From Owenia fusiformis (lineage: Eukaryota): 64,000 nucleotides of DNA. Under the pieces are notes generated by a model that did no database searches, was not told the DNA's origin, and worked only from the letters and a program-made list of their open reading frames with translations. Location of the stretch: NCBI GenBank assembly GCA_903813345.2, contig CAIIXF020000001.1, positions 19,530,001-19,594,000 of the forward strand, read 5' to 3'. A program made the position numbers and the translations under genes. This document shows positions 1-30,600 of this stretch, one piece after another (within the stretch, counting starts at the first letter, position 1; each line of letters opens with the position of its first letter).

Positions 1-1782
1 GTGTCAGTGTTGTACCATGATTTGAGAACAAATAAGTAAAGAATTGTTACTTGGAATGTAATCTAGGTATAACTGCAGAAGTGATCCCTGTATCTCCATT
101 AAAAATATTCCTCAAAATATATGCACCATTAAAAGGGTTTTGTCACCAGATCCCCTTTTTAGTTTTAAATGCTGTCCCATTTCCAAATGTATGGAGGGGA
201 GTGTAGTTGCTAATTAGATTTGGGACTAACAATAAAAAATATAATACATAAAATATTCAGTACTTAGAAACAGTCATTGTGGATATGACACAAGTAAACA
301 AAAATAATGCAATGGCATGCTATAGTAATATGAAAACAAACAATGCAGACTTAGATCAGCATTGTCAACATATGAATAAGAACTTTTCTTTAGGATAAAT
401 AGAAATATGGCTTCTGGTTGAACTATTGGTACTTTTCAAGCTCCAAAAATGAAAAATTGCTATCCAGCAAAAGTATGATGAACTTAAATGTACCTGATAT
501 TTATCACATAAGTATGTTTATTAGTAGTTTAATAGAGTAAATATATGTACATTTATATGGGTTTCTCTAAATATTACAATACAATGAATTAATTTTACAC
601 ATTTTAGTTACTTGAACTGTGCAACTGACTTTTGTAACTACACATCTATTCTTAAGAAATAAAAAAAACTGTTCATCTGAGGAACTTCTAACCACTTTGG
701 TGTATCATTGTTAATCATTTAGGCCTCCTTTAAAAATTTAGAAATTACAGGATCACCTCTGTACATGTGTATGGTTTGCATATGTCAGTGCATTATATTG
801 ACATCTATGTAATCTCACATTAGATATTGACATATTTATCCTTGTTTTTTGTTATAAGCCATGCATGTTTTTCCAAGGTTGTCAAGGACACAAAAATCGA
901 TACACCGCAGTGCTAACTGTCCATATAACAATTGATATTTCGCAACTTACTTATCGCATGCTAAGTGAGTTGCGAAATCTCTCTATAAATAACAACTGTG
1001 AGTGAGTGATCCTCATTTGAACATTTTTGACCCTCTGACATATTTTTAAGTTTAATTTAATTAATCTGATAAAAGTAAAGTTAAACCTTTAAAATACATT
1101 TGTAAGTGGAACACCTTTGTAAGTGGAACATCTCTACAAACGGAGCATTTTCCAAAGAACCTTTACCATCTTCTTAATGTAAACTTGACTTCTGTAAGCT
1201 GAGAACTTTCCAAATTTATGATATTAAGACGTACTGAGTGTTCCACTTAAACAGGTTTGAATGTATTTAGTAATTTAAATAAACATAGTGAGATGACTGG
1301 TTTTCTAAGTCTTAGCTCATATTTAGAAGATGTAATAGTAATATAATTTTATTTAATGATCACATCTAAATTCTACAATATAAAGAACAATCAAAATTGA
1401 TTATGTAAAATTAAAATGTACATTTGCCTCGGGACAGCCATGAAAGATAAGAAAAATAGTCTTTCAATGCAATATTACGGATTTTTGCAGCATAAAGACC
1501 AATGCATTTTAATGTCTATGTAATGCTATGTTATATATCGAAATTGAGAAAATACTCTTGAATTGTTTTTCTACTGAATGCATATATATTATATATGGTA
1601 CATACATGACATTATAAAACAAATAGTGATTGTCACATTTTTGAAAAATAATATAGATAATTTCTTTTGGCTACAGGCAATGGGACAATGTAGGTATCGA
1701 GTAAATTCCCCAACCGTAGTCAGTGTTTGTCAAATTGTAATTCATTGTTCACGTTACTGTATATTCATCTCATCTCAGTTTT

Positions 1783-4700
1783 TTAATAATTGATATATAT
1801 ATCACACAATATTGATTTGGCAACAATTGCTACATAACCTTTTTTACAAACATTTGCTTCACAGCTACAGCTCCACTTACAACCTGTTACCAAACCATTA
1901 TATGTCTCTACAACTTTAGAGTCCAAGAAATCGCAAATTTTGAAGGATCCAGTGAAATCCTCCGAAGAACCCGTTGTTTCTTGGTACACAATTATGGTTT
2001 TATTAGATACGCAACTAGATAAACCTTGAGTGTAGAGAACGATGTTGTATTCTGAGTAATCAACACCAGAAATGTCTTCATCAAATTTCAGGCTTGTTCC
2101 AATGTTGATATTGATGCATGTGTTGAGATTGCCGTCTGTTATTTTGTCTTTCTTCATACTGATTAGACTCCCTTCACCATGCTTTATGTTGAATGTTATA
2201 GGTGTCACTGGAGAACATTGATTATATGACAACTGTTACCATAGTAAGTCTAACTTAGATTAATGCTATGCTGATCGTCATGGAATTGTTACAGAGTGAA
2301 TTGTATGCCCTTTATGTTTTGAATCAATAAGATTTTTGAATAAAAAATTGAATGAAGTGGCCTACCTTGTTGACTGTATGCCATGATAGGCATCAGTCTA
2401 CAACAGCTTTTGGGTCCAGTTACGGCTGCCCCCACTGGTAAATCATAGTCAAATTTCCCTAATGCTGTAAACTGACTATATGTCTTCTCATGTAAACCAG
2501 ATGTACCAGAACGTCCCTTATATATTAAGGCTAAATTTTTTTCGTTTGATGTATGCGCTCCTATTACATCTCCAGGTTGAAACATGACTGTTTGTCCAAA
2601 GGGAACTACATAGGACTGGAGCCCTAAACACACAACAATATCACTGTTCCACAACTAGTTACTGCGACAGAATGTCAATGTAACAAAATGGATGAACTTC
2701 CTGGATACAAATTTTTTGTTTTCTCGATTTAAACTTACGTTCCATCAAAGTAACTTGTTGTGGAACAATGAACATATAAATATTATGAATTGTAAAAAAC
2801 ATTGTAAAATTGTTTATAAAGAGAGCTAGTAGATTTTTATTATTTTCTAGTATCTACATGTACAACTGTTTTTGATGTTTTGAGTATATTGTCTATCAAT
2901 TTAAAATTTATTCTTCAACATGTATTGTAATGACTTCAGTATGAATGAAATGTCCCTTGGTGTTGTGGTCTCAGATTGTGATAATGGTACTTGAATGGTG
3001 GGGCAGGGGTATTAGACACTGTCTTTTCACATTGGATTATGATTTGGGATAGTAGGGATTTATTATACTTATGACTGGTATACACTAAGATGTTTTTGTT
3101 TTTTTTCTTACTGTGTACAGTGACCATATTTGGTATTTTCCCGTTGGCACTTGCGCTTATATATTTCCATCTCATTAATTTCCAAAACAGAAATGTACAC
3201 TCACCTGTTCCCGGGGGAGTTATCTCATTTTTGCCAATAAGCTTGAAGCCACCATCAACCAATGGTCTCCAGATGTCTGCCCAGAACTTGTAAGTATTTT
3301 CAGCAAAATATTCCCAGACAAGAACTTCTCCATGTGCTTGAAAAGTCAGGTCTGCCAAGATGTTAAGCTTTCCCAATAATGGTGGTGTTCCATAATCTTG
3401 AACTGGGCCCCCTATTGAATGAATGGGATCGCCCCAAGGCACTGCAATTTAAACAATTTATCCGACTATAATTATTATATGTATAATGGCCAGTAATATA
3501 CGGGGTGAGCACAAAACATGGGGCACCTAATATCTCCATAACCCTATTACCTCTACTTCTAAAAATTTGGACATGTGAAACTAGTGAAATTTCAGTTTTA
3601 TCCTTTAAGATTTCCGATAATACACTTGAAAAATTGATCAATTGGTCCTCCATCTTCTCTGATTATGGTGCACAAATGTTTTTTTTTCAGGAATTGATTG
3701 AGTTACAAAACTTAATAAGTATATTGTTCAATTTTCAAGGTAATAGCTTGATACGGAGGTTTAATTAAAGCAAATAACCCTTTGCCACCAGAAGTTGAAT
3801 TAATAAGGCATTTGGTGAAGGCATTGGTCATTGTACGGTACATAATATATTACCCTAAATAATTTTGTAAATCAGCAATTCAATTGTACTCATGGAAGAA
3901 CTCAACATCACATATTTTCTTGTGATGCAACTCATTTATAAAAGTAATGTGTCAAAATTATCTAATATTCTCGATATCATTTTCATTTTTCACTTGAATG
4001 ATGTTTATTAATTTTGTTGGTTATCTAGCAATAACCACTTTTATTACTTTTGTAATAAATTTTTAATTTGTCACTTTTTCTGTTAAGAGTTGCAAAAAAT
4101 ATTAGAAATTTCACCTTGGTAGAAGCTAGCAGCATTCTTGAAACCATCCGTGCCATCATCACCAGCTATCTTAAGTTCTTGTGCATCAGTACTGGTATAA
4201 TGCATAATACGTTTGTCACTGTGCGTTGATTGAAAAACAAAAGTCCTTGGAAAATATTCATCCTTCAGCATTAACCAAGTCGAACCTCCTTCAAAACTTG
4301 AGTCACTTCCAGAACTTTGGATGTACAGCTTTCCACTGTTGCGACGCAGGAAATATCCGGGTTTAGCATTGTATTGGATAGAAACTGTATTGGGTTGAAG
4401 AGTAAGGCCTGGTGACTGAACTGTCCACAGTCCAGAATCATCATTTGTTTTCTTTTTCACGAGCCTTACTTCATTATTTTCATCAACATTCAGTAACCAG
4501 CCTGGTAGGTTTCTTGGATGAAGTTCTACTTTTGTATCTATTGCATAATTAAAAGGGTTTTGGTTAAAGATGAATATATAATATGGCTATTTACAGATAA
4601 CAACTTCAAAAATAGAGACAATTACAATGCTAGTAGTTAACACTTATTTCTAAGACTGAGAGCCATTCATTTTCCAATATGGTAGCTACCTTAAACATAA

Positions 4701-7700
4701 TATTTATCTCACTTTATGCCTCGGGTGCATAATTTCTAAAAAATGGTAAAAATTGATTTATAGGGATTTTACAGTTTTAAAATGATTTGACAAAAGAATC
4801 AAATAGAATTGAGAGCAATTTTTTGTAGAAATAAAGTATTGTCAAAAAGGAAAATGATGTCATTGTTGAGTGCCTTCTTCATTTTCCCTACCTGAACCTC
4901 TTGTGCAAGTCATTTTACATCTAAGCAATTATCCCAGTGAGAATCAGATCTATATTGGGGGGGGGGGGGGTGGTTGACAAAATTGAATGAAACATGTACA
5001 GTTCACCTACCAATATATTCTTTGCGATTTCAAATATAATATCTCCCTAAAGATATTATACCATCTAGATCTGATACTACCTACTATAAAGATCAGATAT
5101 GTTATCATTATGTGTGTTATTATCCCACCGAAGTTCGAGGGGGATATAGAGAAGCCGTCCATCCGTCCTTCCGTCCGTCCGTCCATGTGTCCAGGCGATA
5201 ACTCCAATGACAGATTTGGTTAAAATTTTATAGGCTTATGCCTTATGAATGTAGGACCTCTGCTCGAGAAGGAATTTTCAATATGGCCGCTCAATTCAAA
5301 ATGACCGCCATTTTTCGTAAAAAATGTAATCATTGATAACTCAAATACAAGTTGAGGGATTTGGTTCAAATTTTATATGGTGATACCTAGGGACAAAGGA
5401 GTTTCGCACAAAAAGAGATTTTCAAGATGGCTGCTTAATTTCGAAATGGCGGCCATTTTTCGTAAAAATATGTAATCTTTGATAACTCAAATACCAGTGA
5501 ACAGTTTTGGTTCAAATTTTATATGATGATGCTTAGGGACACAGTAGCTATGTGCGACAAAAATTTTTCAAGATGGCCACTTAATTTCAAAATGGCGGCA
5601 ATTTTTTGAAAAAAACGTAATCTTTGATAACTCAAATACCAGTGAACAGATTTGGTTGAAATTTTATTTGATTATGCCTAGGGACACAGTAGCTCTGTTC
5701 AAGAAATAATTTTCAAGATGGCGGCTGAATTTCAAGATGGCGGCCAATTTTCGTAAAAAACGTAATCTTTGATAACTCATATACCAGTGAACGGATTTGG
5801 TTCAGATTTTATATGATGATGCTTCTATCACAAAGTGCACAAACATTTCAACATTTCAACTAGCTATATTAAGCATAATATGTTTTGTTCGGTGGGATTT
5901 GCTACTCCGTGGAGTTGCTGTTTTTCTAGTTACCTGTTGATTTGGCATATGTGAAGAACTCGGATATTAAGGTGGCTAACATCCACACCTGAAACACAAA
6001 AATATACAATGTATATCTTGGCTGCAAATCTTGATTGAAATTATAGGGTTAGAATTTTTTGCATGCAGTAGAGCTTTTCAAACTGAAACCTATCCAAGGT
6101 TGCACTACAAAAAGGATAACCTTTAAAGTCCCCATGTATAGTTTAGAAATATGTTTTTTTCCCATCGAACGAAGTTCGGAGGGATATAGGGAATGTCTCT
6201 GTCCGTCCGTCTGTCTGTCCGTCCGGGCAATAACTCAAATACCATTGGCCCGATTTTGTTCATATTTCGTACACTATACCCTATGGGGTAAGAAGTTCTG
6301 CTCGAAAGCAGATTATTAAAATGGCCACCCTTTTAACATTTTTATCACACCATCGGTGGGATATAGTCGTCATGCTGGTCGTGATTGTGGTCGTGATCGT
6401 GGTCGTGATCGTGATCGTCCCGCTTTTTGTCATCGCCGTTTAAGGAAAACTGCTCATCAGATTTTCTCCAAATTCGCAGAGATGATAGAGCATATGAAGT
6501 ACTAGAGCTGATTAACTTTTGGGTGGCCATCTTGTTTCCTGGCGGCCATTTTGAAGGTTTTTCGAAAAATCTTGTCATCGCCATTTCAGGAAAACCGCTC
6601 ATTGGATTTCCTTCAAATTTACACAAATGATAGAGGATATCAAGTACTAGAGCTGATTAACTTTTGGGCGGCCATCTTGTTTTCTGGCAGCCATTTTGAA
6701 GATTTTTCGAAAAATCTTGTCATCGCCATTTCAGAAAATCCGCTCATCGGATTTCCTTCAAATTTACACACATGATAGAGGATATCAAGTTCTAGAGCTG
6801 ATTAACTTTTGGGCGGCCATCTTGTTTTCTGGTGGCCATTTTGAAGGTTTTTCGAAAAATCTTGTCATCGCCATTTCAGGAAAACCGCTCATCGGATTTC
6901 CTTCAAATTTACACAAATGATAGAGGATATCAAGTACTAGAGCTGATTAACTTTTGGGCGGCCATCTTGTTTTCTGGTGGCCATTTTGAAGGTTTTTTGA
7001 AAAATCTTGTCATCGCCGTTTCAGGAAAACCGCTCATCGGATTTCCTTCAAATTTACACACATGATAGAGGATATCAAGTACTAGAGCTGATCAACTTTT
7101 GGGCGGCCATCTTGTTTTCTGGCAGCCATTTTGAAGATTTTTCGAAAAATCTTGTCATCGCCATTTCAGAAAATCCGCTCATCGGATTTCCTTCAAATTT
7201 ACACACATGATAGAGGATATCAAGTTCTAGAGCTGATTAACTTTTGGGCGGCCATCTTGTTTTCTGGTGGCCATTTTGAAGGTTTTTCGAAAAATCTTGT
7301 CATCGCCATTTCAGGAAAACCGCTCATCGGATTTCCTTCAAATTTACACAAATGATAGAGGATATCAAGTACTAGAGCTGATTAACTTTTGGGCGGCCAT
7401 CTTGTTTTCTGGTGGCCATTTTGAAGGTTTTTTGAAAAATCTTGTCATCGCCGTTTCAGGAAAACCGCTCATCGGATTTCCTTCAAATTTACACACATGA
7501 TAGAGGATATCAAGTACTAGAGCTGATTAACTTTGTGGCAGCCATCTTGTTTTCTGGTGGCCATTTGAAGTTTTTTCGAAAAAATCTTGTCCTCGCCAAT
7601 TTAGGAAAACCGCTCATCGGATTTCCTTCAAATTCGCACAGATGATAGAGGATATCAAGTACTAAAGCTGATTATCTTTTGGGTGGCCATCTTGTTTTCT

Positions 7701-9796
7701 GGTGGCCATTTTTAAGGTTTTTCGAAAAATCTTGTCATTTCCATTTCAGGAAAACTGCTCATCGGATTTCTTGTACATGATAGGGGATATCAAGTTCTAG
7801 AACATATTAAATTTTGGGTGGCCATTTTGTTTTCTTGTGGCCATTTTGAAGGTTTTTCGATAAATCTTCTCATCGCCATTTCAAGAAAACCCCTCATCAG
7901 ATTTGCTCCAAATTCCCACACATGATAGAGGATATCAAGAACTAGAGCTGATTAACTTTTGGGTGGCCATCTTGTTTTCTGGTGGCCATTTTGAAGTTTT
8001 TTTTGATAAATCTTGTCATCACCATTTTATAAAAAAACGCTTATTGGATTTCCTTCAAATTCGCACACATGATAGGGGATATCAAGTTCTACACCTATTT
8101 GATGGTGTGATCTCGTTCACGTCCTGTGCCTTGTTTTACTATAACTCGAAAAGTAGCGGAGCGATTTTGTTCATATTTGGTATGTGAATACTGTAAGCAT
8201 GGCACACTGTCTAATGACACTTTTGGTAGAAGGTGGCCATTTTGAAAAATGGCTGCCATTTTTGCTATATACTTTGTTTGTAAAAATGCTAGTCATGGCT
8301 ATTCGATGGGATTTGCTACGCTTTGGCGTTGCTGTTGTCTAGTTATGATTTTAAAAGTTATTTTAGGGATTTTTTGAAAAAAAGTTGTCAGCTTTTGATT
8401 TCTCAAATATTCAAATTTTCTACCATTTTTCAAATAAGAGTTTAAATTTTTTAATCATCAATAATTCCACTATACAGTGCAAAAAGCATTATCTTTTTAA
8501 CACCAATGCAAAGCTTGAACAAAGGACACACTATTTCAATGATAAGATGGCATATCCAATGTACCACTTCAATGTTCTAGCATATCAAAAATATTTTGCA
8601 ACCTAAGTAACCTCATCGTGACATCACTCAAGAGTTTCTATAATTTAGATAAAATTTGGATAGAGTGGCATTGAAAGTCTAATTTGGAAGATATCAAATG
8701 TTAATGACCAAGATTTGGCTGAAAACAATGGATAACATGAGTTTCCACTATGGTTGAATAACACGGGATGTGTATTTTTCAACTTCATTGCAACTTTCTC
8801 CTTTTCAGAAGTTACCTACATTGTGCTGACAGGAAGAGACTTTTTTTTGTTATATGTTAAAATGAGAAAAGAAGGTCCTCTTATCAGTCTGACACGTTGA
8901 AAATTTTTCAAGATGGGGTCTTAAACAATTGTTATCACAGAGATTGCTTGATATTTTTAATATCCTAATAACATTGCTTCAAAAAAATTCTGAGTAGACT
9001 TTTTTGATCAAGGTTTGATAAAAGTTAAAAATTCATTTATAGAACATGGCACCAAATTAAGCTATAGACAGCCCTATTTGACTTGAACATGTCCATGCTG
9101 AAATGGTTTGGAATCATATTTGTACCTCAAAATCATTAAACTCTATTATCAGACATTGTTGCACAACCAACATCAAAAGGGAAACTTAATGTGAAATAGG
9201 AATTGAAAGAAGACAGATGAAAATAACCATTTTAACATATTCTTAATACAATACAGGTCTTTCCAACTTAAACTCATAATTTACATTTTATATGGAAACA
9301 ATGTTCTATTTGAATGTAATATAATACTATCTCCAATGTGCAAGCTCTGTCACACTTGAGACGATTTGCCATTTATTTTCCTTTATTGATATAAAAATCA
9401 ATTTTAGAAGTGTAATAGAAAATATTATGAAATACTTAAATAAAGGTTAAAAATGGAGCAATTATGATTTAAGTTATTAGTAAACTAGTTTGTGTTTACT
9501 CAAAAATTAAAATAGGAGCCAACGAACAATGCACAAAAGGTGAAATCCATTTAAAAAACTGTGAAAATGATAAAAACAAAATCAATAGAACTGATGAGGA
9601 AGGATATGTTTGCAGTGAGTGAATATGCAATAATGTGCAGATTGTAACAAAAGTCACTGAATGAATTTACATTGTATAGAGAAAAATAGCTAATACCAAG
9701 TTATATGAAAATACATGTACACATGCTAGATTTTGATAACAAAATTTTAAAATAAGATACAAGGAAAATTATACTTACTAATTTAAGTTGCTTCAT
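1783..9796 (-). CDS. Secreted multidomain protein (~471 aa): signal peptide + AbfB-like beta-trefoil + uncharacterised beta-rich domain + Cys-rich C-terminal domain
   Basis: Exons complement(9779..9796, 5934..5988, 4115..4537, 3205..3441, 2366..2623, 1783..2207), all GT-AG and phase-consistent (0,1,1,1,1), total 1416 nt. N-terminus MKQLKLVWMLATLISEFFTYAKS looks like a signal peptide. Exon 3 (WTVQSPGL..VSIQ..PGYFLRR..F...STW..FK.AASF) resembles AbfB/otogelin-type trefoils. C-terminus CKWSCSC...CKKGYVAI..ILCDI. Confidence 0.78.
5121..5925 (+). mobile_element. Non-autonomous Helentron-type (HINE/DINE-like) element with internal ~145-bp tandem repeats
   Basis: Subterminal inverted repeat ATCCCACCGAA (5122) / TTCGGTGGGAT (5888), (GTCC)n microsatellite near the 5' end, 3' hairpin GCTACTCCGTGGAGTTGC. 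GATAACTC recurs at 5335, 5481, 5626 and 5771. Confidence 0.8.
6161..8340 (+). mobile_element. Helentron-type element (same family as 39486-40420), split by an insertion
   Basis: CCCATCGAA (6161) / TTCGATGGG (8302) subterminal IR, GTCC/GTCT microsatellite, 3' hairpin GCTACGCTTTGGCGTTGC. The two halves join at TTTTAACAT..TTTTACTATAACTCG as in the uninterrupted copy. Confidence 0.8.
6344..8135 (+). mobile_element. Helentron-type element carrying a ~11.5-copy 145-bp satellite array
   Basis: ATCACACCATC (6344) / GATGGTGTGAT (8101) IR, (TCGTGA/TCGTGG)n microsatellite, 145-bp period also evident from ORF-track offsets (6551, 6696, ...). Confidence 0.85.
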
Positions 9797-11107
9797 CTTC
9801 CGTCTTGCATGCCTGAGCATGAAGAAATGTTTATGGAATGAGGAACTTAGTTGCTAGATATAAACGCATTACTTTTACACATCATTACCAAAACAATTCA
9901 TTAAAACCAGACAACTGTCACTAAGGTATATACACAGTTCTCAATTGCTGAAATAAACATTACAAATTATTTAGGAATGAACAATGGAGTTACGCCCAAA
10001 GTATTGACATTTTTATATAAATATGTAATGTAGCTCTTTGATGAAAGAGACATATGTACAAAAATAGATCAACAAAAAGTGTCAATTATGTATTCTTATT
10101 GTCATGACATGCTACTCCTCTCCCTCCATGTAAATATCAATAATCGTCTCAAAATGAATATGTATTTTGTAACTATTATATATGTTGAATAAATACTTTT
10201 TAAAAAAACAATCTTCAATGTTATATCACCTTGGAAACCTAATATTTAAAAATTCATTGATGATGTAAAGGAGTATTGCCTCCTCAACATCACAAAAAAT
10301 GAAAAGTTCCTTCCTTTTTTATCAATGAACATTGTGTGCCACCTTTTGTTCTGCAACAATTTTCCTTTCTTATTGTTGCTTTTTTGGCATTTTTTTGTCA
10401 TACAACTATCTTTATGTCCATGATTTTGCCAAAAAACACTAATCCAAAATGTTCATGCGATGCACCTCATCATGCCACATTGAACTTTCAAATTGAATGT
10501 CCATTGCTTGTCAATAATCATGATTTGGTCTTACAGAACTAAATTATTTTCACAATTCCACAACTTGAAAACAGAATAAGTGGATTTGAGAATATAAGGG
10601 CAGCACTAATTTACAACCTTAATAGAAATTATATTATTATGAGCATGAAAAATATAACAACAATACAATATTATTTTTTTTCGCTGAGCTAGTTATCTAT
10701 TAACAGATTAAACCTTGTACAAGTAGCTTTTTTATCTTGTATGGGTTGGTTATTCAGTTTTTAGGTCATTTGTTTTCATCAATAAAAATGAGTCACAGCA
10801 TCTTATTTTTTATTTGACTTCAAATACATGTAACCTGAGGTCTGATGTTTTGTTAGTATTTTTTCTTTTTTTTCATTTATATTCTTTAATGAATTCTTAT
10901 TTTCTATAGGGAAGGACCATATATTGTTACGGAACACCTCAAGAAAATGAAAACATCTATGAAATAGCTAGTTGCTGTTTCTTTTTGCATCTGTGGCATT
11001 AGTTCAGGCATTGTTAGCAATGGCTGTCATGATTCCTTATAGAACATGAGGTGTCACATATAAGCTATGGCTTCCATGGCAATTCTCTTCTGAATTAGAT
11101 ATGGTTG

Positions 11108-11294
11108 CAGTGTTCCCACAGTATTTTTTCTCAAGTGGGTTGAACATTCCCATCTTCAAAATTCAGACCTATGCCAATTTTACATGATTTTTTTTTCAAG
11201 TGGGTGCAAATAGATTTTCAAGTTGGTGCAAGCCTGTTTTCAAAATCTCAGGTGGGTGCTGTGCCCACTTGATTTAATGCAGGGGAGATCACTG
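11108..11294. mobile_element. MITE with CAGTG termini and 5-bp target-site duplication
   Basis: GGTTG-CAGTGTTCCC ... GGGAGATCACTG-GGTTG. Confidence 0.7.
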
Positions 11295-12025
11295 GGTTGA
11301 GTCAGTTAATTTTATTTGTTAAATTATAAAGGTTAAAGTTGCTTTTTAATTTTTAATTTTGTTTATTTGTGACCACTGGGTATTGTTATTTACCTTCATA
11401 AATACTCAGTGAAAAATAACGAAATCCAAAATGGATTGATCATTAATATTTTATCACTATGTTCGTTGAAACCACTTGTGAAATGCAATGATAAGATATG
11501 TTATACTGCTAGTATGATATCTCTGTAAAAACAACTCTAGTATGTTGTAATGTAAAAAGTTAATGTTTGAGTGACCTGATGATAAGAAGTATCAGCTCTT
11601 AAAGGCTTCATGAAGAAATTGATCTATCGGCATATAATTGAAATTAGTTTGTATATAGCATTTTAGAAATATTCTAGAATTAAACCAGTTTAACCATTTG
11701 TTTTGTATTAAGATATTTCTACAATCTATTTGTCAACATATAATTTAATTGTCATTATTAATTTTTTTAGAAACTGTGAATTAGGATAATGAAATCAATA
11801 TTTATTAGTATGGATAAGTGGGTGGAGCTAAAAATTAAGCTTTAAAATCTAATCAAAATTCAAACTTTGGACTGCATTAATTTATGCACAGCGCTTACTA
11901 ATTTAGGACAAAAATAAGTCGTTACTGAATAAAGCAATTATCACTATAGAGGAATATAAAATATAATCAAAAACATATATTTTTGGAATGAGCTGAAAAA
12001 CACCATCTTATAAAACAGTCATAGG

Positions 12026-13382
12026 ATGAAGGGAGAAATTGTATTTGGAGTTCTTTGGGTGTTGATTTCAATTGCCATTGTGAATGGTCAGAACCCTCAG
12101 ATTACTCAGGAGATTTTACCGGAAGTCAAACGTCTTGGACAAACTGCCTATTTGAACTGTACAGTCACTAGGCAACAGTTAAATAAAGTATACTGGTCCC
12201 ATCTTAACACGCAGACAACCATCTCTAGTGATGATCAGATCATAGTCGACCATAACGAGATTGTTGATGGATACAGGAAATATCGATGTATAAAAGTAGT
12301 CCATCCTGATCAGCGTACAACAGTGTATATGTTAATCATTACTAGGCTTCAGCAGAGGGATATGGGCATTTACCGCTGCCGTATATTTGTTAGAGGAGCT
12401 GAGAGACATCCAACAAAGGATGGGGAGCTACAGGTAGGCTGGGAACTTCATTATTCTTTGTTAAACCTTGGTGTTTCATGTTTTAGGGCTATTCACAAAG
12501 GCTTCAAAAATACCATTCAAGATAATACATATTGTAAGACAAAATGTAATATTATGCACAGTTTTAACTTCATTTGTTGTATATATAAAATGTACATACA
12601 AACAGTATTTATTTATTTTATATTCATTGGCTTGATTTTTACCATTGCAGGTGTTGGTACCACCAGTTCTTGTGTACTCTCAGACTTCAACAACAGCGAC
12701 AGTAATGGAGGGTGGAGCACTTAACCTAACATGTAACGCCACAGGCTTCCCTTACCCTAATATCACTTGGGTGAGAGGGAATGGTGCGTCCCTCTCCATT
12801 GGGAAATTTTCATTTAGAGGCACTTTGTTAGCGCTGCACAACATCCAGAAGAGAGACAGAGGGGTTTATCGTTGCGTTTGTGACAACAATGTGCAGCCTC
12901 CAGCTACCCATGATGCAACATTGCTTGTGTTTTTCCGCCCAGAAGCCAGGGAAGTGCAAGATTCTTATGGCCAGGCTCAGAATCGGCAATTTGATCTGAC
13001 GATTGAATGTCGAATCTCTGGCTACCCAGATCCCAACTTGGCATGGTACTACATTGAAGGGGACACAAAAAGAGAGATCACCAATGATGATAAGCACGAC
13101 ATTCAGATTATGACAAGCCACGGTTCAGGTTTAGACATCAATGAGCTATGGTACACGTTGACTATCATAAACATTCAGGCAAATGATTATGGACGTTATG
13201 AGTGTGAAGGGCGTAATGTGTTAGGTACTGACAGTGCCTTCATTCAGATCTATGAAACATCGGAATGCCAGGGAGCAAACTGTCCTTCAGAAGGTGCATC
13301 CAACCTTGGAGGGGGTGCTGCTCAAAACAACATTGCCATAGCAACAATTGTTGTGGGTTATTTAGCCACAAGACTTAATTGA
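12026..13382 (+). CDS. Lachesin-like (IgLON/DIP-related) three-Ig-domain, probably GPI-anchored adhesion protein, 379 aa
   Basis: Exons 12026..12433 and 12651..13382 (phase-0 intron). Signal peptide; three Ig domains (LNCTV..W..DMGIYRC; LTCNATGFPYPNITW..DRGVYRC; IECRISGYPDP..DYGRYEC); lachesin-like YGQAQNRQFDLTIEC and YETSECQGANC; small-residue stretch plus hydrophobic C-terminal tail. Confidence 0.88.
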
Positions 13383-14749
13383 TCACTTCAATGTTCATAA
13401 TATACATATAACATAATTAGAATAATCTGCATAAAATGCCTTATAGACATTAACCAAGGACAGTTTTTGATGTCATTTCCGCATGATGTGTGCATCTATC
13501 ATTTATATATTGTAGTTTCTCAGCTTAAGCATATTGTATACCATTTTCTTGTACATAGATTTATGCTAAATATATAACTTCCATCAGAATTCCATTTATA
13601 TTTTTATATTTTACTGTCATCTTCAAGGACATTTTTTAAGATTTTCTGACAAAACATTGTACTTTCCTAAACAATAAAATGTGATTGAACAACTTATGCT
13701 CATATATGTATCATAAGACAAAGCTAGTTTTAGTATGAGTATGAGTAACAGTTTTTTTGCTGGACAGATTTGATTTCCCTTTCAATAAGAAAGTGTCCAT
13801 TGTCCATGGTAATTTCTTCTTTGGTATTTATGCTTACATGCTTTTAGGTATTTAACATTTATTATTGGCTCTACTTAACTTGTTTTTGGGAGTAACATGC
13901 CATGGTGATGTATAGCAAAAATGACTTGAATTTACATGTAGTTTCCAAACACCTCTCAAATAGTTTCCAAACACCTCTCCAATCCGAATACCTCTCAATG
14001 TGAACACTATTTTTTGTCACAATTTTGTTATCTCCCATTGACTCGCATATTATAAGAAACCTTGAAATGTGAACATCTAGTAGTCCAAGGACTTTTTGCC
14101 AGTCCCTTTGGCATTCAGATTAGACGGCTTTTTTACTTATTTTATATTTGCCTTGATTTTCGGTTACTATGGCAATCATTACTAATATTTCTGTTATACC
14201 AAATATTTTTTGATAGATTAATGCAGTATTCTATACTGCAGATTCTATGAAAATTTCATTAGAATATATTAAAAAATAAAAAAGAGAGATATTATGAGAA
14301 CTTTATGATAATTTACCCTCATATACTAGATAGTTATCAAGTGAATGATTATGATACCAGTTAATACAGGGTTTTCGAAATTTCATTGAATTCTCGTTTT
14401 TTGATGAGATTTTAGGAGATTTGCATTTTATTCATTAAATACCAACATTTTCTTCTTCTTGATGGCATATTTGAATTCTCTGTGTAATTTTCTATCAAAA
14501 CACTTTGTTTTGCACAGTTTCCTTCAAGGTTTAAAGATCCTCATCAAGTTTTCTCAAAACGGTTGGGTGAAATCACCATTGACACAATGTTAAAATCATA
14601 TACTTTGAATTTAATGATGTTTTATGTTAATCCAAATGAAACACATGATAAATCAAGGAATTAAGTAACGCTTGCTATAGATTTCCATGTATTCTTGCTC
14701 TACACATGCTGCCATCTATTTTAATAATATTAAATGTTTTGTTATTTAG

Positions 14750-16470
14750 ATGCTAGAGTCCAACTGGAAAACCATTAAAGATGAAGGTCTGGCTAACATG
14801 GATGAAAAGAAAGGAAGTTTTTTACCTGAGGAAGAGAATCTCTTAGATACTGGAGATTGGAAACAGTTCACACTCTTCCAACAAGGTACATTAAGTTTGG
14901 ACTCATCAAGTTTGGACTGACAAAACTCAAATTAATTTATGAATATAAACTGGTGATTTTGTGGATTCTCTTATTGTTAGACATAGACTTCTATGGAATA
15001 ACTTAATAGCACAGTGATCAGTTTTGTTTTATTTTAGTACACATACATTTGCATTACTGATTTTATCCCTTTTCACTCTTTTCCTATTTTAAAATATCAA
15101 TTTTATGAAAACTATATAAATTGTGTTACTGATGTCATACAGCTGTTTAAGTTAATATGACTGATGTCATATAGCTGTATAAGTTAGTGTGACTGATGTC
15201 ATTCTGCTTGCAGGCAGGAAGAATGAGAAGAATTGTAAAAGAGCTCCAAAGACTTGTGCACTCATAGATAAAGTTGCAGATGCCAAAGGTTGTAAACGTG
15301 GTCAGGTAGGTAGCACAGTGACATATTTTATGGTATATCTATCATTCAGTTATCAATTATTTTAAAACACTCTAACATTTCCAGGGGCGTAGCCAGCGAT
15401 CACAACCCCCCCCTGGCTACACCCCTGATTTCTATAATATAAAGTTTGAGGTTGATAGGGAATTCAGAGCAAGAGTGAGGACCAGCTTGTAAAGGTTTTC
15501 AATATATTGCAGATTTAGTTAGCTTGGTTTGCTCAGTGTGTGATGATACTATTTTTTCTCCATTTTAAAACTTGAATAAAAACTCATTTAAGAAAAGGAC
15601 ATTGAAAGTCTTGCTTTTACAAAATCCCTGCAGAAGACAAAAAGCGCTTGTATGATAACACACTTTAGGTAATGAAATATTTCAAAATGTATTGAAGGTT
15701 TGTATGAGAAAAGAATGATTAATACAGAGATTTCTCAGTCACTTTACATACCACTCAAGCCCAGGGTCCTTTAGATTTATGGTACCAAATTAAACTAGAT
15801 AGGCAACAGTAAAATAGATTTTTATGAACTGAAGGGAATCAAAGGCTTTGTAAAGGAGTTTGAAATTGGAGCCATCAAGTTGCAAAAGTTTGATTGGTTA
15901 TAGAATGGTGATGGCACCATATTAAAAAAAAGTAAAATGTATGACATACAATAAATAGTGTATGTGTGTTTCTTACAGGTGAAGTTCTCCATTATGTCCC
16001 CTGGTGTCCATGTATGGCCCCACTGTGGCCCTACTAACTGTAGAATTAGGGCCCATCTTGGTCTAGTTATTCCACCAGGACCTAAAATCAGAGTCGCTGA
16101 TGATACAAGGTTAGTGAAAAAATATAGTATTAACCATCTTAGCTTAAATTAAACTTTGCAGATTTTGATTTCAAGTACAGGAATGAGATCCAAGAGTAAA
16201 TTGAGTAAATTTTAATCCAATTTATATTGATGGTATTCTTTTGGAGATCTAGTATGTAAGAACCCCTGTAAGAACCTGAAATCATTAAAAGATTTGATTT
16301 TTCAAACTTGTATTTTCAGGGAATGGATTGAGGGGAAATTTATTATGTTTGATGATTCATTTGAACATGAAGTTTGGCATGAAGGGTCTTCATACAGACT
16401 TGTATTAATAGTAGACTTCTGGCATCCTGAACTCACTGAAGATCAGAAATATGAGATCACACCAATCTAA
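14750..16470 (+). CDS. ASPH: Aspartyl/asparaginyl beta-hydroxylase, last four exons (catalytic domain; 5' part outside window)
   Basis: Exons 14750..14885, 15214..15305, 15979..16109, 16320..16470 give LESNWKTIKDEGL..GDWKQFTLFQQGRKNEKNCKRAPKTC..GCKRGQVKFSIMSPGVHVWPHCGPTNCRIRAHLGLVIP..FDDSFEHEVWH..DFWHPELT, closely matching the ASPH C-terminus. Confidence 0.96.
15382..15427. mobile_element. 46-bp minimal MITE (termini only) with 5-bp TSD
   Basis: ATTTC-CAGGGGCGTAGCCAG...CTGGCTACACCCCTG-ATTTC. Confidence 0.7.
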
Positions 16471-16750
16471 GCAGACGATATGCTCACACCCTTTTTGTTT
16501 ATCATAGACTAGTCCATTTAGTCATTAAAAACTGGTTGATATCACATAAAGAGGGGTTCATCAATGTTTTTACTCTTTGAAAAGGTGTGCCATTTTAGTA
16601 CAAGTATGCCATAGGATGGATTGTCTGAATTCAAAACGCCATCCACACCTGTCATAAATGGAAGGATTTAATCTGAGTTTTCTTTGTATCTACTGTATTT
16701 AAAATGCCTCTAATCCACTTTGAGACATTCACCATGCATCTGATCTCTTG

Positions 16751-17194
16751 TTATGTCACCACCAAAAAGTGGTGACATATTGTTATGGTCTCAGTTCTTT
16801 GACCAATTTTCTTTTTTAAAATCATCTTCAAGTTCTCAAATGTTCGAATCTGGCTATAAATTTGACCTTAAATGACATTCTCAAGGTCAAAAAAGATTTG
16901 ACCTTCAGTGACCTTCTCAAGGTCAAAAGGGTCTTTTTTCATCTTGCTTCAAATTGACCAATTTTTTTAAAAATCATGTACAAGTTCTTGGAAGTTCAAA
17001 TCTGACTTAAAATTTGAGATTTCACCTTCAATGACCTTCTCAGGGAAAGGGTCTTTTTTCAACTTGTTCCAGATTGACCAATTAATTTTTTCAAAATCAT
17101 CTACAAGTTCTCAGAAATTCATATCTTACTTAAGATTGAACTCATAGTATTGTGAGCAACTGGGTGGTGACATTTTGTCATGTTAATTTATCTT
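16751..17194 (+). mobile_element. Helentron-type element (ATGTCACCACC family) downstream of the ASPH stop
   Basis: ATGTCACCACC / GGTGGTGACAT subterminal IR followed by TTTGTCATGTTAAT; internal degenerate repeats with TTTGACCTT/AAGGTCAAA. Confidence 0.7.
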
Positions 17195-18099
17195 GGAAAC
17201 ATAAAATCTCATCTCATACAGCTCTATTTGTATTCTTTATAAATTTCAAAATATTTTTGTATTTTATATCAATTAGACATACAATATACACCAATAGCGA
17301 ACACATTTCAAATAAAAGTGAAACATCGAAAACGTTCATGCTTTGTACAAGCACTGATCATCATATCGTAAAATCTCTATGCAACAAAGGAATTCCATTT
17401 TATATAGCTGTGCATGCTTAAAGTTTCACAATTATACGAAAGTTACATAATACATTAATCAAAAATCTATATTATATAACCTAATGTGAAATATTTTTGG
17501 ATTATATTGAATGTATTTATTTTATTATAAAATGATATTGAGCATAATACTACAAAATACAGGTATACCATACATTGCTATATGATGCATCTCCGAGACT
17601 GCATTCTAATTAACATAACTAGAAAAAATTCACGAAGTGTATAGAAACAATTTTCATTTAGAAATGTTAATGGTGTTTAAATGGTATTATAACAAAATAT
17701 GACCCACAGCCATTATATGGTGGCCATTATTTTGTTATTCATAATAGTATCTGGGAGATGCCTATGTAGTCTAATATAACGGGTCAGTTGCCAATAACCC
17801 CATTGATCTGTGTAAGTTTCGTTACTCCTTACATTAGTGTATTATATTGAAAAATGAGTATGCATGATATTACACAAAATCCATAAAAGTCCACAATTAT
17901 TTTGAGCGTTTTGTTAATTTGTAGCGATCTAGTAAGATCGTTTTATATATTTTGAGTCTTGTGTCCAACAATACAGTATTATTTTGTGTATGATCATCGA
18001 AACAATTTTTAGATAGAATGTAATTTTATTTAACAAAAACATCATCAGATGTTTACTTCATCAGTGTTTACTCTGTTTCTCGTTTGATTTTATGATATG

Positions 18100-18402
18100 T
18101 AGGCCATCAGCTTTGGTTTAAAATTTCAGCCACATGTATCAAATGAGGGGAACAAGTCTATATGAATGGTAATTTTTACAAGGTATGCTCCCCTAGAGGA
18201 AATATGGATGGAGCTTTTTGGATGTTATAACCAGTTATAACCCTTTTTCAAAATGGCCACCAAAATGCTTTTCACCACATATAATATGTAGTCATATCTA
18301 AGCATAAGGAGATGTAACAGTGTTTTGATATCTATGGCTGAGTTTTACCTTTAAGGTTCAACCTGTTCCTCCATGCTGATGGCCTATTACTGATGTATTG
18401 TT
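18100..18402 (+). mobile_element. Degenerate element with subterminal inverted repeat (probable Helentron type)
   Basis: TAGGCCATCAGC (18100) / GCTGATGGCCTA (18375); internal AAAATGGCCACC motif. Confidence 0.4.
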
Positions 18403-21203: not shown

Positions 21204-24200
21204 ATGGTAAGTAGATGTTTAAAGTATGTATTTACAGTTAATTAATAAAATGTTGTGAATGTTAAGTTTACTTTTCTTTAGTCATGAAAGAAGATGGATA
21301 TTGTAAGTAAATATTCCAACATTTCCAACCTATACTGAGTTCCATATATCCATGATCATGCCATTCCTATTTTTAACATGCTGTTAATTCTGATGCTTTT
21401 TGTTTTCAGTTGAATTTGAAATACTTCAAGGGAATACTTTTGGCTCTCTTGCTATTGGCCATTGGATTTATAATCATCAAACAAGATATGCCAGATCTCT
21501 GGAAAATCCAAGATAAAGTCATAAAAACTCCAGAAATCCCAACTTTGTTGAGAAATCTTCTTCACAAACAACCGACCGAACAACCAGCCAAAGATGCAGC
21601 AGTTATTGAAGGAAAGTTGAAAGACACAACTAGCCAAATTGGTCATAAAATTCAGGATTTGGAAATTAATCGGATGAAAATGGCAGTAAGTTTGGCAGCT
21701 ATGAGAACTTCCACTAAAAGTATTTCTGAAACTAGTAAGGTTACACCAAAAAATCCCATCTCTGGTGATATACATAATAGCATTGCAAAAATAGACATGA
21801 AAAATGCTATAATTGGTAAAGAAGATACAAGAATGTTTGAAAGAACAGAAAAGGGGAAAAAAGAAGAAACTAAAAGAACTGATTTAGAAAAAGAGGATAA
21901 CCAGGGTATAGATGGTGGAAAACAAGATATCAAAAAGACTGACATGGAAAATGAAGGATTGAAACATATTGAAAAGGAACAACATCATATAGGAAAACAA
22001 GAGTCCAAAAATGATGGTATGAAAAATGGAGAATTTAAAGATATTGACAAAGAACAAGTTATCCAAAATAATTATGTTGGAAAACATGAGACCAAAAGTA
22101 CTGGTATGAAAAATGAAGAATTCAGACGCAATGGTAAAGGACAAGTTATCCAAGATAATGATACAGGAAAACAAGAGATAAAAAGTACTAGTATAGAAAA
22201 TGAATTGAAACACAATGGTAAAGGACAAGTTGTCCAAAATAATGATCTAGGAAAACAGGAGACCAAAAGTACTGGTGTGAAAAATGAAGAATTCAAACAC
22301 AATGGTAAAGGACAAGTTATCCAAGATAATGATACAGGAAAACAAGAGACAAAAAGTACAAGTATAGGAAATGAAGAATTGAACGGCAATGGTAAAGGAG
22401 AAGTTGTCCAAAATAATGATAAAGGAAAACAAGAGACAAAAAGTACTAGTATAGAACATGAAGAATTGAAACGCAATGGTAAAGGACAAGTTGTCCAGAA
22501 TAATGATACAGGAAAACAAGAGACAAAAAGTACAAGTATAGAAAATGAAAAATTGAACGGCAATGGTAAAGGAGAAGTTGTCCAAAATAATGATAAAGGA
22601 AAACAAGAGACAAAAAGTACTAGTATAGGAAATAAAGAATTGAAACGCAATGGTAAAGGACAAGTTGTCCAAAATAATGATACAGGAAAACAGGGAACTA
22701 AAAGTACTGATGGAGAAAAAGAGAAAATGAAAAGTACAACCACACTAAAAGAAAACATTGGGAATAATGGCACAGTAACAGTTATGAATGAGAAAAAAGT
22801 GAAGGTTATACATGGAACCCCTAAGGCAACAACCATGCCTACGACTACAACTCTACCCCCTCCCACCACAACCACCATCCAGCCTCCATACAGGGTTGAA
22901 TCTCTGAAAGAGCTCAAACGACCAAACACAATACGCTACAACTATAATGGACATTGGCAAATGCAAACAGATTATTTTGAAATATACCTATATAGGGCAT
23001 ATTATGACGATAGAATGACCCTAAAAACGAACCCTGCTGTAAGAGTGATTGGAATGTCTGAATGTGCTGAAAATCGAACCCTGCATTGTTTGTTTTGGTT
23101 CAAAGGACAAGATCACCCTGAAATGGTAAATGTCACTTTAGGTAGGATTGGTAATGGTGTACCACGACATGGATTATTATTCCGAGAGTATATATTTTCT
23201 TGTCCTCTACCCAATCGTCCTGATAGAAAATTCCAACCACCGGAGCATGTCTCATTGATAACTACAGACTATATGCTCCCTACAAACTTGATACCTGTTC
23301 TCATCCCTGAAAAACCTGCAAAGAAGTTAGAATTTGGAATGTGTGTCTCAATCACATACTGGAAGCAGGATCCATATAGATTAGTAGAATGGTTGGAGCT
23401 GCTGAAGCTTTGGGGAGTGGAGGAGGTAACGGTGTACAATCAAAGCCTGGCCGTGGAGAGTGATGCTGTCTTCAGATATTATCAACAGAAAGGTTTTGTG
23501 GATTACAGAAGCGGAGAAAAACCAATGGATGATGGAGGTAATCTTAATGATTTCAGAAATTAAATTGTGAATCTGTGAATTTTTATTTTGGAAAAATGAT
23601 GGATTTGAGACACACAGACCATGTGCATAGCATATGATTGTGAATAATGTATTACTCATATAACTATGGTTCGAAGTGATTTTCTTATTTGAATTGGAGG
23701 CCACTATGTTCACATATATTTGATATTTTGACGACCTGATTTTATCAGTAATAAAAAATATTTTGACCAAGATCTAATAAATGTACATAGCCCTTTATTG
23801 CATTTTTTAGATTAAAACTAAATACAAAATAATTTTCTTTGCAGGAGAGTACACTTTCTTCCTTATGATGACACCTGTTATTAATGACTGCATGTACCGC
23901 AACATCCACCGCTATAAGAAATTGGTCATCAGTGACTTTGATGAACTCATTGTCCCGAGAGGCCCATCTATGAACAATTACGCTGATATGCTGCGACAAA
24001 TAGACACTGAACAACCCCGATTGTGCAAATATAAATCTTACTGGTTCCGTAATGTTTATTTCTTCTACAATTTTCCACCCATCTCAAAAACACCACGATA
24101 TTTAACAACATCTAGGTATCTTACGAGAATACGACATAGCACTTACGGGAACTCCATCAAAAGTATCAATGATCCAATGACGTGTATTAGAGTTCACAAT

Positions 24201-24446
24201 CACTTTTGCTGGGAAGCCATCGAAGGCTACGATAAGCAAGAGTGGTACGTGGATGTCAAGACGCATCTAGGCATGAACCAACATTATAAAAAATGTCACC
24301 TTGATGGTCTCCATGGTGATGATTCTAAGGGAGAATGTGAGAAAGCCATGAAGACTTCATATTATGATGACACAATGCTTAGATTTAAAGACAAAATAGA
24401 ACCACATGTAAGAAAAGCATGTAAAGAGTTGAAGTTACCTTTGTAA
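21204..24446 (+). CDS. Glycosyltransferase family 92 (DUF23 / GALT-1-like) type II membrane protein, ~910 aa
   Basis: Exons 21204..21206 (ATG only, followed by GTAAGT), 21410..23537, 23845..24446; 2733 nt in frame. N-terminal TM segment, long stem, GT92 motifs YLYRAYYDDR, FGMCVS, RLVEWLELLKLWGV, INDCMYRN, and DxD in SDFDELIVP. Confidence 0.88.
22075..22710 (+). repeat. Coding tandem repeat, 87 nt / 29 aa, about 7 copies
   Basis: AATGGTAAAGGA at 22130, 22214, 22301, 22388, 22475, 22562, 22649. Confidence 0.95.
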
Positions 24447-27639: not shown

Positions 27640-30600
27640 ATGTCGCTCGGAGAAAGTAAGGAAATAATTTGAAGTCATTGAACTTTTATTTCATCAACCT
27701 TGATTTGATCAGTTGATTAGCAAAATTATTATGTTTGACATGCAGCCAAATATTTGACTCACAGCTAATACAGTCAACATAGGTCTTGTCACCTCTAAAA
27801 GTGCTAATTAGGAATTAGAAACTCCAATCAAAGGTGTTTGTTTTCTTAAGTGTTTTGTTTTCCTGATTCCTGTTCTGTGTTCAATTCCAGGAAGCCAATG
27901 TGATGTTAAAGAGGGGACTAACACACAGCAGTTTGTAAAAGGTAAGAATTGAAATATTATTTTTGATTACTTTTTTAATTCAAATTATCTTTTTATATTA
28001 GATATCTTTAGATCTACATTTTTTGCAGTAAAACTTAATATTAATGCTACTTTACAAATTGATGTCTGAATGTTCATTTTATCAATGAAAACACGAAAAC
28101 TCAATTTTAGTGCAATTTCATTTCACTAGATAAATGCCCTACTATGAATTCAATGGAATCTATTGACCAAGTAATGTCCATAAACAGAGCCTGCCCCAAT
28201 AAGGAATTTTGTCGTAAAAGAATGTAAACAATTGACCGCATTTCTTCATCAACAAAATTCTTGTATTTATCCAATGACGCCTCATTGAATAGATCAACTC
28301 TATAGTACTACGTCATTTGGTTTATCAATGAATTGAACTTTCACTAGTTGCCACATTTTTTTGTACTGTAAAGAACACACCTCACGCTATTAGAAATTTT
28401 TGCCAATAGGCATCAAAGAATATTCTCAGTTGGCGGTTATTGTATTGCACAAGTTACAGCCTATTGGCTCTATCATATTGACATGTAGCTTAATCTACTA
28501 ACGCTCACAAATACAGTACTAAACCTAGATCCTAGGTTATATTAAAATAAATTTGCTCTGTAATAGAGAACATTTTAAACTTCAGTCTGGACGACAGTGT
28601 TTTATAAAATGGAACAAAGAGTTCAAAGACGCAAAAAGGAAATCAAATTGCCTTCTATTCCAGAATCTGCCCGGCATCCTGTCTGTACATGTAATAAAAT
28701 GGCTGGTCAAAGCAAAACAAGAAGACGAGTACAACGACCAAGAGGAACATCCCCTCAAGAGATGACAGCATGGACTTTTATGGCAAAATCAAAAATGGAA
28801 AGGGATCTTAATAAATTAAAAGAACAAAAGTATCCATTTGAGAATCTTGTTCTGGAAGGAGGGGGTGTAAAACTGACAGCCTATCCTGGAGCACTTCAGG
28901 TAAAGTCGACACTATCACAGGTTTTCCTAAGGATATAATAATTCGCGCGACTATATTAAAATACATGAGGTAAAATTCAAATTGCTGAAATGAAAAACTA
29001 AAATGGATTACAAATATTACCATTGGACTTCATTTTCAGTTGAAATATTGCCTGAAGTAAACAATCTGTAAAATTCTTGCGAGGCAGTTGTTTCACATGG
29101 CTATAGACCCAACCCATCATTGCACAGTCATGAACTGTATATGTTCATGGTTTCATATGTATACAGTAAATAAAAAGGCTGAAGAAGTATGGAATCTAAG
29201 CCATCCATTTCATCAACAAGTTTAAAAAGGCTTAATTTGAATCATGTTTTCAAGAAAGAATTTTTGTGGTATTGTACACATTAGTTATTCCATTGTACCA
29301 GATGTTCAACTTTTTTTTTATAGTTGATGATATTCATTATTGATGAGAATATTTATTTCCAATATGCTCAAAGTAAAAAGGAATGTGAGATAGTCTTTGA
29401 CTCATGCTCTAAAGCATCAACATTTCTAATCTGCTTTTGATATTAATGCAATCCTGGATATATATAATGTGCAGAATTATATCTATTTTCAATTTAATTC
29501 CAATCTTAAGACATATTAGTGAATTCACTTTGTATGTAAGTGCTTTTAACATAATCCATATTCTGCTGCATTGAAGTAATGCAAATTGAATATATGCGAT
29601 ATAATAAAAATTGCTCAGCTAGTGGTTAAAAACAGCAAAACTTTCCTTAATGAACATTGAAACTATTTCTCCAGAATTAACTTTCTATAGCTATTATAAA
29701 GCATTTTAATTATTCAGTTCATTCAGAAAAAATGATGACTGAGAAAAGTATTTGACTAGTATTTATCTAGAGTTTGGAAAAACAAGAATACTTTTGATTA
29801 TAAAAAGTATGACTGTTTTTTTGTATTTCATTGAATTCATTTGAAGAAAAAAAGTTCAACAGCTTTGAGAAAGAACGACAAGAAAAACCACTTGTATATT
29901 CATATCAACCGATAGCAGAGTTTCAATTCAGACAGAAAAAATGAATAGGTTTCAAAAAGAACCACAAAAACAAACACATGCTGACAAGTATATGCTCAGT
30001 TTTTGACCATTATTTAAAGAATTTAATATTATTTGAAATGTATAATACCAAATTAAATGGACAATAGTGTCGAAAGAACTCAAAATTCTAGGTGTAAATA
30101 TCAAAATTCATTGTTTTTCTTTCAATAATCTCTATTTTAGATTTTTGTCACTGGGCTTCGCTTAAAAACCAAAGAGTCGAAAGATTTCCAGATTTCCATT
30201 GCAAGATTAGAGATTTAACCCTAATATTTATCACAAGAATTAAAGTGATCAAAGTTTCTTTTCATGTATAATAGAATTATTGAAATTATATAACCTTTGT
30301 ATGTTTGGTTGAGCAAAGCAGCTTTAAAGTATGCTGTTTATCCAATGGTTGGGATATAACATTCGAATTGGGAAAGAATAAGAGTAATGATCTTATACTT
30401 TTATAATCTACAGTTCCAAGATGAATATTCTGCTTCTTCCAAAGTTCATGAAATAATATTCTCTTAAGAGTATTGTGGTTTAAATATACACTTTAGATAT
30501 TTCAACAAATTAATTAATTAATCATAAACATTTGCACAGTTGCACAGTTTTTCAGATGTATACAGGCCCACATTTATCCATTTTTAATAAGCTGAAGAAT

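Follow-up and report, generated by a model that had tools for sequence, protein, structure and literature searches.

The window considered here is a stretch of 64,000 nucleotides (C1:19530001-19594000) of the 499.5-Mb Owenia genome, and negative coordinates are counted back from its start. Its left end holds the downstream part of an ASPH gene together with two further genes. As determined by spliced mapping, ASPH consists of 12 collinear exons between -14181 and 16470, joined across 11 GT-AG introns into 587 codons with a single terminal stop. The introns measure, in order, 1562, 2417, 1967, 4087, 1079, 597, 774, 15194, 328, 673, and 210 bp. Intron 8 (15,194 bp, GT-AG, phase 0) is followed in length by ten introns of 210-4,087 bp; it begins 445 bp to the left of the window, behind an exon with a phase-0 GTGAGT donor, and its window part spans 1..14749 on the plus strand. 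Exon 8, which encodes the QRSLYN and AWW motifs, is located at -582..-445 (the region C1:19529419-19529556), just outside the window; QRSLYN itself was located at -528 when 200 kb to the left of the window were scanned for the motif. The exons on the other side of the intron, all on the plus strand, are exon 9 (14750..14885), where the oxygenase part begins (human residue 589 onward), exon 10 (15214..15305), exon 11 (15979..16109), and exon 12, whose coding part with the stop codon occupies 16320..16470.

The original prediction held that an ASPH exon with a clean acceptor starts mid-protein at 14750, that the exon before it is absent from 1-14749, and that two genes therefore lie within one ASPH intron of more than 14.7 kb. 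All of this is borne out. Exon 9 is preceded by an AG acceptor and corresponds to human ASPH 590-633. With five full-length homologues as queries, tblastn places the TPR exons immediately before the window and none of the ASPH exons within 1-14749. Because exon 8 lies just outside the window and no ASPH exon maps to 13382-14750, neither a preceding exon hidden behind the last guest exon nor a contig devoid of upstream ASPH exons was found, either of which would speak against the nesting. Across the intron 8 join, the protein aligns gaplessly with all four homologues compared, and the membrane anchor (assigned by eye from a hydrophobic stretch), TPR repeats, hinge, and oxygenase domain follow in one frame. 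The equivalents of human K666, S668, H679, R688, H725, and R735 are kept without exception (6/6), those of S668, H679, and R688 in exon 11 and those of H725 and R735 in exon 12. Owenia ASPH thereby resembles human AspH, for which PMC6817910 gives TPR repeats at residues 330-555, a hinge at 556-577, and the oxygenase at 562-758, in domain order as well as in its catalytic and 2-oxoglutarate-binding residues; the N-terminal luminal region is shorter (587 residues in all, compared with 758). A search of the genome with a full-length homologue returned 10 matches, eight at this locus and two in a gene on C12. The latter were considered as a second ASPH, and with Asp_Arg_Hydrox matches of 36-39% identity were taken to represent a distant paralogue, which leaves a single full-length ASPH found in the genome. 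According to the results given in PMC6817910, substrate is hydroxylated by a human protein with TPR and oxygenase domains but not by the oxygenase domain on its own, so that an active enzyme in Owenia would need the long splice across intron 8.

An intron of this length could in principle reflect an assembly error, in which 15 kb were misplaced inside ASPH. Intron 8 is rich in repeats, among them an interspersed repeat at 5155..5824 (a CCGT-type microsatellite and 3.8 copies of a 145-bp unit) and a tandem array of 11.5 copies of a 145-bp unit at 6427..8091, both without assigned strand and the former with similar sequence in the locus of a paralogue, and no single contig from run X1 bridged the whole stretch 8200-18200. 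Run X1, provisionally listed as RNA, was treated as DNA in view of its unspliced contigs over introns. Its DNA-like contigs nevertheless tile 8579-9423, 9642-9901, 11297-11588, 11773-12447, and 12780-13478, the assembled contig extends over 62 Mb, neither the window nor the 200 kb to its left contains any N, and exon order, strand, and phase are consistent on both flanks. A misplaced insert would require two false joins, both within one intron, and we regard such an error as exceedingly improbable.

Within this intron, a lachesin-like gene in the orientation of the host and a multi-exon gene in the opposite orientation are nested between consecutive ASPH exons at the DNA level; for the antisense gene, this refers to the four exons found. 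The lachesin-like gene has a complete coding frame of 379 codons, with three Ig domains (Pfam). Coding exon 1 (12026..12433, plus strand) encodes a signal-like N-terminus and Ig1, and coding exon 2 (12651..13382) encodes Ig2, Ig3, and a hydrophobic C-terminal tail followed by the stop codon, where both the signal-like and the hydrophobic segments were assigned by eye. They are separated by the only coding intron of the gene (12434..12650, 217 bp, phase 0). The first AATAAA downstream of the stop, a candidate poly(A) signal, is found at 13673..13678 on the same strand. The name lachesin derives from a source label (Mytilus "lachesin-like"), the original prediction, and three-Ig hits to DIP/IgLON structures, the best full-length ones being DIP-theta, DIP-eta, DIP-alpha, and neurotrimin. 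In its signal-like start, three Ig domains, and hydrophobic C-terminus, the protein agrees with the Wirin family, which includes the Lachesin subfamily, as described in PMC6525511; an expansion of lachesins in annelids is reported there.

One close paralogue of this gene is present in the genome, on C10 and hence unlinked to the copy on C1. It has eight coding exons, with two alternatives for the last exon, and is referred to below as the parent; 280 of 376 aligned residues are identical between the two proteins. None of the seven parent coding introns is kept in the nested copy. Coding exon 1 is continuous over three parent intron sites and coding exon 2 over four, and the nested copy continues directly into the equivalent of the parent's distal last exon. 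The 217-bp intron is situated 7 nt upstream of parent intron 4, which is in phase 1, and since the coding sequence on its flanks aligns to the parent without loss, it represents an insertion, presumably gained after retroposition. As for the polarity of these changes, four weaker Ig loci were fetched, two of which are informative (C1:8.61 Mb and C10:14.09 Mb were left out as other-looking Ig families). An older Ig paralogue at C10:28.01 Mb has parent introns 4, 5, and 7 at identical codon and phase, the remaining four not being alignable there, and an Ig paralogue at C10:27.39 Mb has intron 4 at exactly the same site and intron 5 within 1-2 codons. The recurrence of parent introns in older paralogues identifies the intron-rich state as the old one.

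Taken together, these features suggest that the sense guest is an old retrogene of the C10 gene, an explanation absent from the original prediction. At the age of the nested copy, poly(A) or UTR marks would not be expected, so that retroposition is argued from intron loss: a poly(A) remnant was looked for and not found, and similarity to the parent UTR did not exceed that of shuffled sequence (score 30, against a shuffled mean of 30.2 and maximum of 37). The alternative is a DNA duplicate of the C10 gene that lost its introns later, one at a time or by conversion with cDNA, and whose present intron is parent intron 4 slid by 7 nt. The short distance between the two intron sites would fit such an origin, as would the disappearance of the direct marks of retroposition, with neither poly(A) tail nor target-site duplication left and synonymous sites saturated. 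It would, however, require that six introns were lost cleanly, that the remaining one slid by 7 nt with a change of frame, and that the proximal of the two alternative last exons disappeared, in a place where the antisense neighbour and ASPH both retain their introns and general intron loss is therefore not in evidence. We consider a DNA duplicate quite unlikely, and the nested copy is treated as a retrogene in the following. Like the retrogenes with new introns described in PMC3565874 and PMC3002245, it has an intron that is absent from its parent; the cases in these sources stress intronisation of exon sequence, whereas the intron in the nested copy is an insertion.

The retrogene is maintained as a protein-coding gene. 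A 26-row tree was built from the nested copy and 25 of the 40 lachesin-like hits, all of these being annelid-like or mollusc sequences. The nested and C10 copies are sisters in it with support 100/99, on branches of 0.34 and 0.11, respectively, and within this sample the duplication is confined to the branch of Owenia. Between the two copies, pN is 0.13-0.16 and pS 0.80-0.83, the latter saturated. Since dS for the pair is saturated, it yields neither a date nor a dN/dS value, and pN/pS was used in its place, which amounts to 0.12-0.20 (bootstrap, mature part). Saturated pS alongside low pN points to an old copy maintained by selection, and the nested copy is under purifying selection.

The antisense guest was described in the original prediction as a complete gene for a secreted protein. 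Four exons on the minus strand were found: one with an AbfB-like domain (4115..4537, phase 1-1), a second without informative Pfam match (3205..3441, phase 1-1), a third without Pfam match (2366..2623, phase 1-1), and the last coding exon, with a cysteine-containing domain (1783..2207). They form one open frame with phase-1 introns, and to this extent the description holds. A signal-peptide exon, which would be the first, was not found in 4545-14749 in two scans, so that, unlike the lachesin-like gene with its complete frame, the antisense gene is only putatively complete and its product putatively secreted, the latter judging from paralogues with signal-like N-termini. A candidate first-exon donor in phase 1 at 4892 was rejected as weak and without a hydrophobic core, and a hydrophobic frame near 9796 was rejected for want of a fitting donor. 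In a paralogue on C2, the signal-peptide exon lies about 0.5 kb upstream of the AbfB exon; the first exon of the antisense gene may lie outside intron 8.

The genome yields 15 additional matches to the AbfB-like domain of this gene. All three intron sites and their phases are common to the antisense gene and a paralogue at C1:61.22 Mb, and the two are identical at 249 of 430 residues, with dN 0.32 and dS 1.24. The last domain gave three hits among 1.84 billion representatives; two of them are strong, and both belong to Owenia proteins whose N-termini look like signal peptides. By the shared intron positions, the antisense guest is a copy, made at the DNA level, of a multi-exon AbfB-domain gene of Owenia.

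The arrangement as a whole resembles that of nested genes in fly, mouse, and human as portrayed in PMC3814207 and PMC11694760, where whole guests reside in one long host intron. Nearly 10% of Drosophila genes are reported to be part of nested structures. The original prediction called same-strand nesting uncommon, which overstates the case: PMC3814207 gives 71.27% opposite-strand and about 29% same-strand nested genes for Drosophila melanogaster, and in mouse and human, same-strand cases make up slightly under half of the nested genes, the orientations being broadly similar in number according to PMC11694760. The fly pattern reported in PMC3814207 is also recognised in gene structure, in that the same-strand guest is intron-poor and the antisense guest has several introns. 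Unlike the majority of same-strand nested fly genes, 72.53% of which are single-exon in that source, the retrogene has one coding intron and belongs to the rarer class. A further difference from the nested genes covered by these sources is that a single ASPH intron holds guests of both directions. Intronic retrocopies in host orientation have been described, some of them linked to shorter host isoforms, and such retrocopies and nested genes can lead to exonisation or to premature polyadenylation of the host (PMC7290577, PMC3192792). The retrogene has the same orientation in its host intron as these, and an acceptor and candidate poly(A) signal by which the host transcript could be cut short. 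The cases presented there rest on transcripts; for Owenia, truncated or fused host transcripts were not observed, and the retrogene is old, protein-coding, and selected. No publication on this locus was found in keyword searches of the literature, and the locus is a real, undescribed instance of an ordinary nested-gene layout.

The public models of the locus differ from the gene structure given above. In NCBI/UniRef, the TPR half of ASPH is represented by CAH1773508, and the catalytic exons are fused to lachesin in CAH1773510. The last exon of the CAH1773508 model (261..398, plus strand) has a weak acceptor of 2.2 bits and is not similar to ASPH homologues, and as an ASPH exon it is probably spurious. 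In CAH1773510, a weak GT site (13350..13358, plus strand, with the cut after 13352) joins lachesin to ASPH exon 9. Scored with a small splice-site matrix, for which these genes supplied 24 donors and 26 acceptors, this donor reaches 1.8 bits, below every one of the 24 real donors (3.3-12.6), and 142 of the 787 GT sites in intron 8 score at least as high. If these models were right, the locus would produce a TPR-only protein and a lachesin-oxygenase fusion, with the catalytic exons supplied mainly by the fusion. Both are indeed present in NCBI/UniRef, and the 702 nt of 12651-13352 (phase 0-0) keep the fusion in frame, but it would lack the TPR repeats and hinge that, according to PMC6817910, are required for substrate hydroxylation, while the TPR, hinge, and oxygenase exons join gaplessly. 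Among the 120 listed of the 692 proteins found with the chimera as query, the chimera itself is the only one with both Ig and Asp_Arg_Hydrox domains. The database protein matches contain only the two split models, and no transcript-derived full-length Owenia ASPH is found among them.

RNA reads bear on the same question. They come from three stranded runs of one study (X13, X14, and X15), with 6-12% of each run taken and small counts throughout, and cover the region 8200-18200, to which ASPH exon 8 and the antisense gene do not belong. ASPH exons 9-12 are covered by plus-strand reads, and repeat-free bins of the intron are near zero. Among the joints and loose ends listed, which repeat reads took up while a further 389 joints and 1,927 loose ends lay beyond the listing, no junction of these genes was seen, be it across ASPH intron 8, from lachesin to exon 9, or across the 217-bp intron; the listing thus speaks neither for nor against any of them. 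A depth peak at 12876-13209 was rejected as lachesin expression, given that its reads have the letters of the C10 parent at 12904, 12921, 12926, and 12938. At 12921, the parent letter is found in 39/39, 37/44, and 40/40 reads of X13, X14, and X15, and the nested letter in 0, 7, and 0; most reads on the lachesin sequence are thus cross-mapped from the C10 parent. The depth in the retrogene at 13262 is 1, 6, and 0, compared with 7, 2, and 9 in ASPH exon 9 at 14778, two positions that a fused mRNA would bring to within about 118 nt of each other; in exon 12, at 16479, it is 4, 7, and 10. Exon 9 is accordingly read in two of the three runs nearly without the adjacent lachesin sequence, which argues against the chimera as main product. 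Run X14, with depth 6 at 13262 and 2 at 14778, is opposite in direction to X13 and X15 on this point and counts in favour of the fusion. Weighing donor strength, domain content, and reads, we find it very improbable that the annotation is right, and CAH1773508 and CAH1773510 are probably artefacts.

We therefore return to a single, normal ASPH whose intron 8 was expanded by two gene duplicates and repeats, and in which exon 8 is spliced to 14750 and the retrogene is made separately; this we consider highly likely. The position of the guests between consecutive exons of the sole full-length ASPH, together with the gapless join, suggests that the host is transcribed through the lachesin splice sites and the AATAAA at 13673. 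In the proposed history, a spliced mRNA of the intron-rich C10 lachesin-like gene would have been reverse-transcribed and inserted in the sense direction, and the retrocopy would have kept its frame under purifying selection and then gained the 217-bp intron where the parent has none. The duplicate of an Owenia AbfB-domain gene, copied as DNA, would have been inserted antisense, introns included. When ASPH is transcribed, the polymerase would read through both guests, and the spliceosome would pair the exon-8 donor, which is strong at 11.6 bits, with the acceptor at 14750, the retrogene sites being skipped like other decoys. The retrogene may be transcribed weakly and unevenly, most likely from a promoter of its own within the intron. 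Both the 15.2-kb splice itself and this promoter are what we infer from the layout.

The relative strength of the acceptors leaves room for another product. With the same small matrix, the acceptor at 14750 scores 4.6 bits (leave-one-out), which is below the 8.3 bits of the retrogene acceptor at 12651, and 14 of the 735 AG sites in intron 8 score as high as the latter. Two other candidate acceptors, just upstream of the lachesin ATG, score weakly, and ASPH spliced to either would run into stops. Of the 14 high-scoring sites, the acceptor at 12651 stands out as known to lead into a long coding exon with an AATAAA behind it. Its frame agrees with that of the ASPH exon-8 donor, as the presumably gained intron shifted the internal acceptor from phase 1 in the parent to phase 0. 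Phase 0 is the commonest intron phase, which counts against a special meaning of this match. If retrogene exon 2 served as an alternative last exon of ASPH, the protein would have the anchor and TPR repeats, then Ig2, Ig3, and a GPI-type tail, and no oxygenase. Run X14 has the most retrogene reads and the fewest on ASPH exons 9-11, in three runs with tiny counts; exon 12 does not follow this pattern, and no junction from exon 8 to 12651 was seen among those listed. We give such an isoform a small chance. Should it exist, it would, where lachesin is on, switch ASPH to a non-catalytic, substrate-binding form. Junctate and humbug are truncated products of the vertebrate ASPH locus, and a TPR-Ig isoform would be a retrogene-built invertebrate parallel to them.

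The locus opens no new class of system, and its significance is of a more specific kind. The two public models obscure the fact that ASPH is intact in this early-branching annelid, and if CAH1773510 is an artefact, as is probable, it puts a false Ig-oxygenase architecture into UniRef. For gene nesting, the locus offers a clean case of an old, selected retrogene in sense orientation inside a conserved enzyme gene, with a gained coding intron, and, given junction reads, would allow a direct test of host truncation by a same-strand guest whose acceptor is in frame.

Downstream of the ASPH stop codon, RNA depth on the + strand remains steady at 2–7 from window position 17218 to 18200, where the mapped stretch ends, and the 3′ UTR of ASPH is therefore probably at least 1.7 kb long, with a repeat inside it. 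Interspersed repeats are abundant in and near the gene (window 5155–5824, 6150–8340, 11193–11294, and 16751–17187), and the majority of the RNA reads mapped over window 8200–18200 fell on the repeats there, with one strand contributing most of them. The two stretches at 5155–5824 and 6150–8340 consist of a CCGT-type microsatellite and 145-bp tandem units, an arrangement that we take to be reminiscent of bivalve Helentron-associated or “pearl”-like elements.

Further genes or candidate genes lie on the + strand of the window. A long frame in two parts (21377–24443) has, as judged by eye, a membrane anchor and a repetitive stem of low complexity, and its C-terminal domain resembles a glycosyltransferase. 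Exons at 28579–32000, with GGG and GSSGG motifs picked out by eye, resemble those of a patatin-type lipase, and those at 55463–57781, on similar visual inspection, resemble those of a BTB/BACK-domain protein. Two tandem paralogous genes for multi-pass membrane proteins (41672–45783 and 46785–49238) have an identical exon layout.

Additional sequences with the Asp_Arg_Hydrox domain are found elsewhere in the Owenia genome, on contig C12 at 24.52 Mb and 24.74 Mb (loci L001 and L004–L006); in one of these, a 395-codon open frame, the middle part of the domain is matched several times. The antisense gene (window 1783–4537) is a member of an expanded Owenia family, together with loci L039–L050, in which an AbfB-like domain is combined with two domains without a Pfam match. 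For the last domain of the antisense gene, a protein search of 1.84 billion representatives returned no close relative outside Owenia. The parent lachesin-like gene on contig C10 (locus L052) carries two duplicated alternative last exons, at 22163614 and 22160974, which open with the same cysteine-containing motif and differ in their hydrophobic tails, and both of the resulting isoforms are included in the public annotation (P0020 and P0134).
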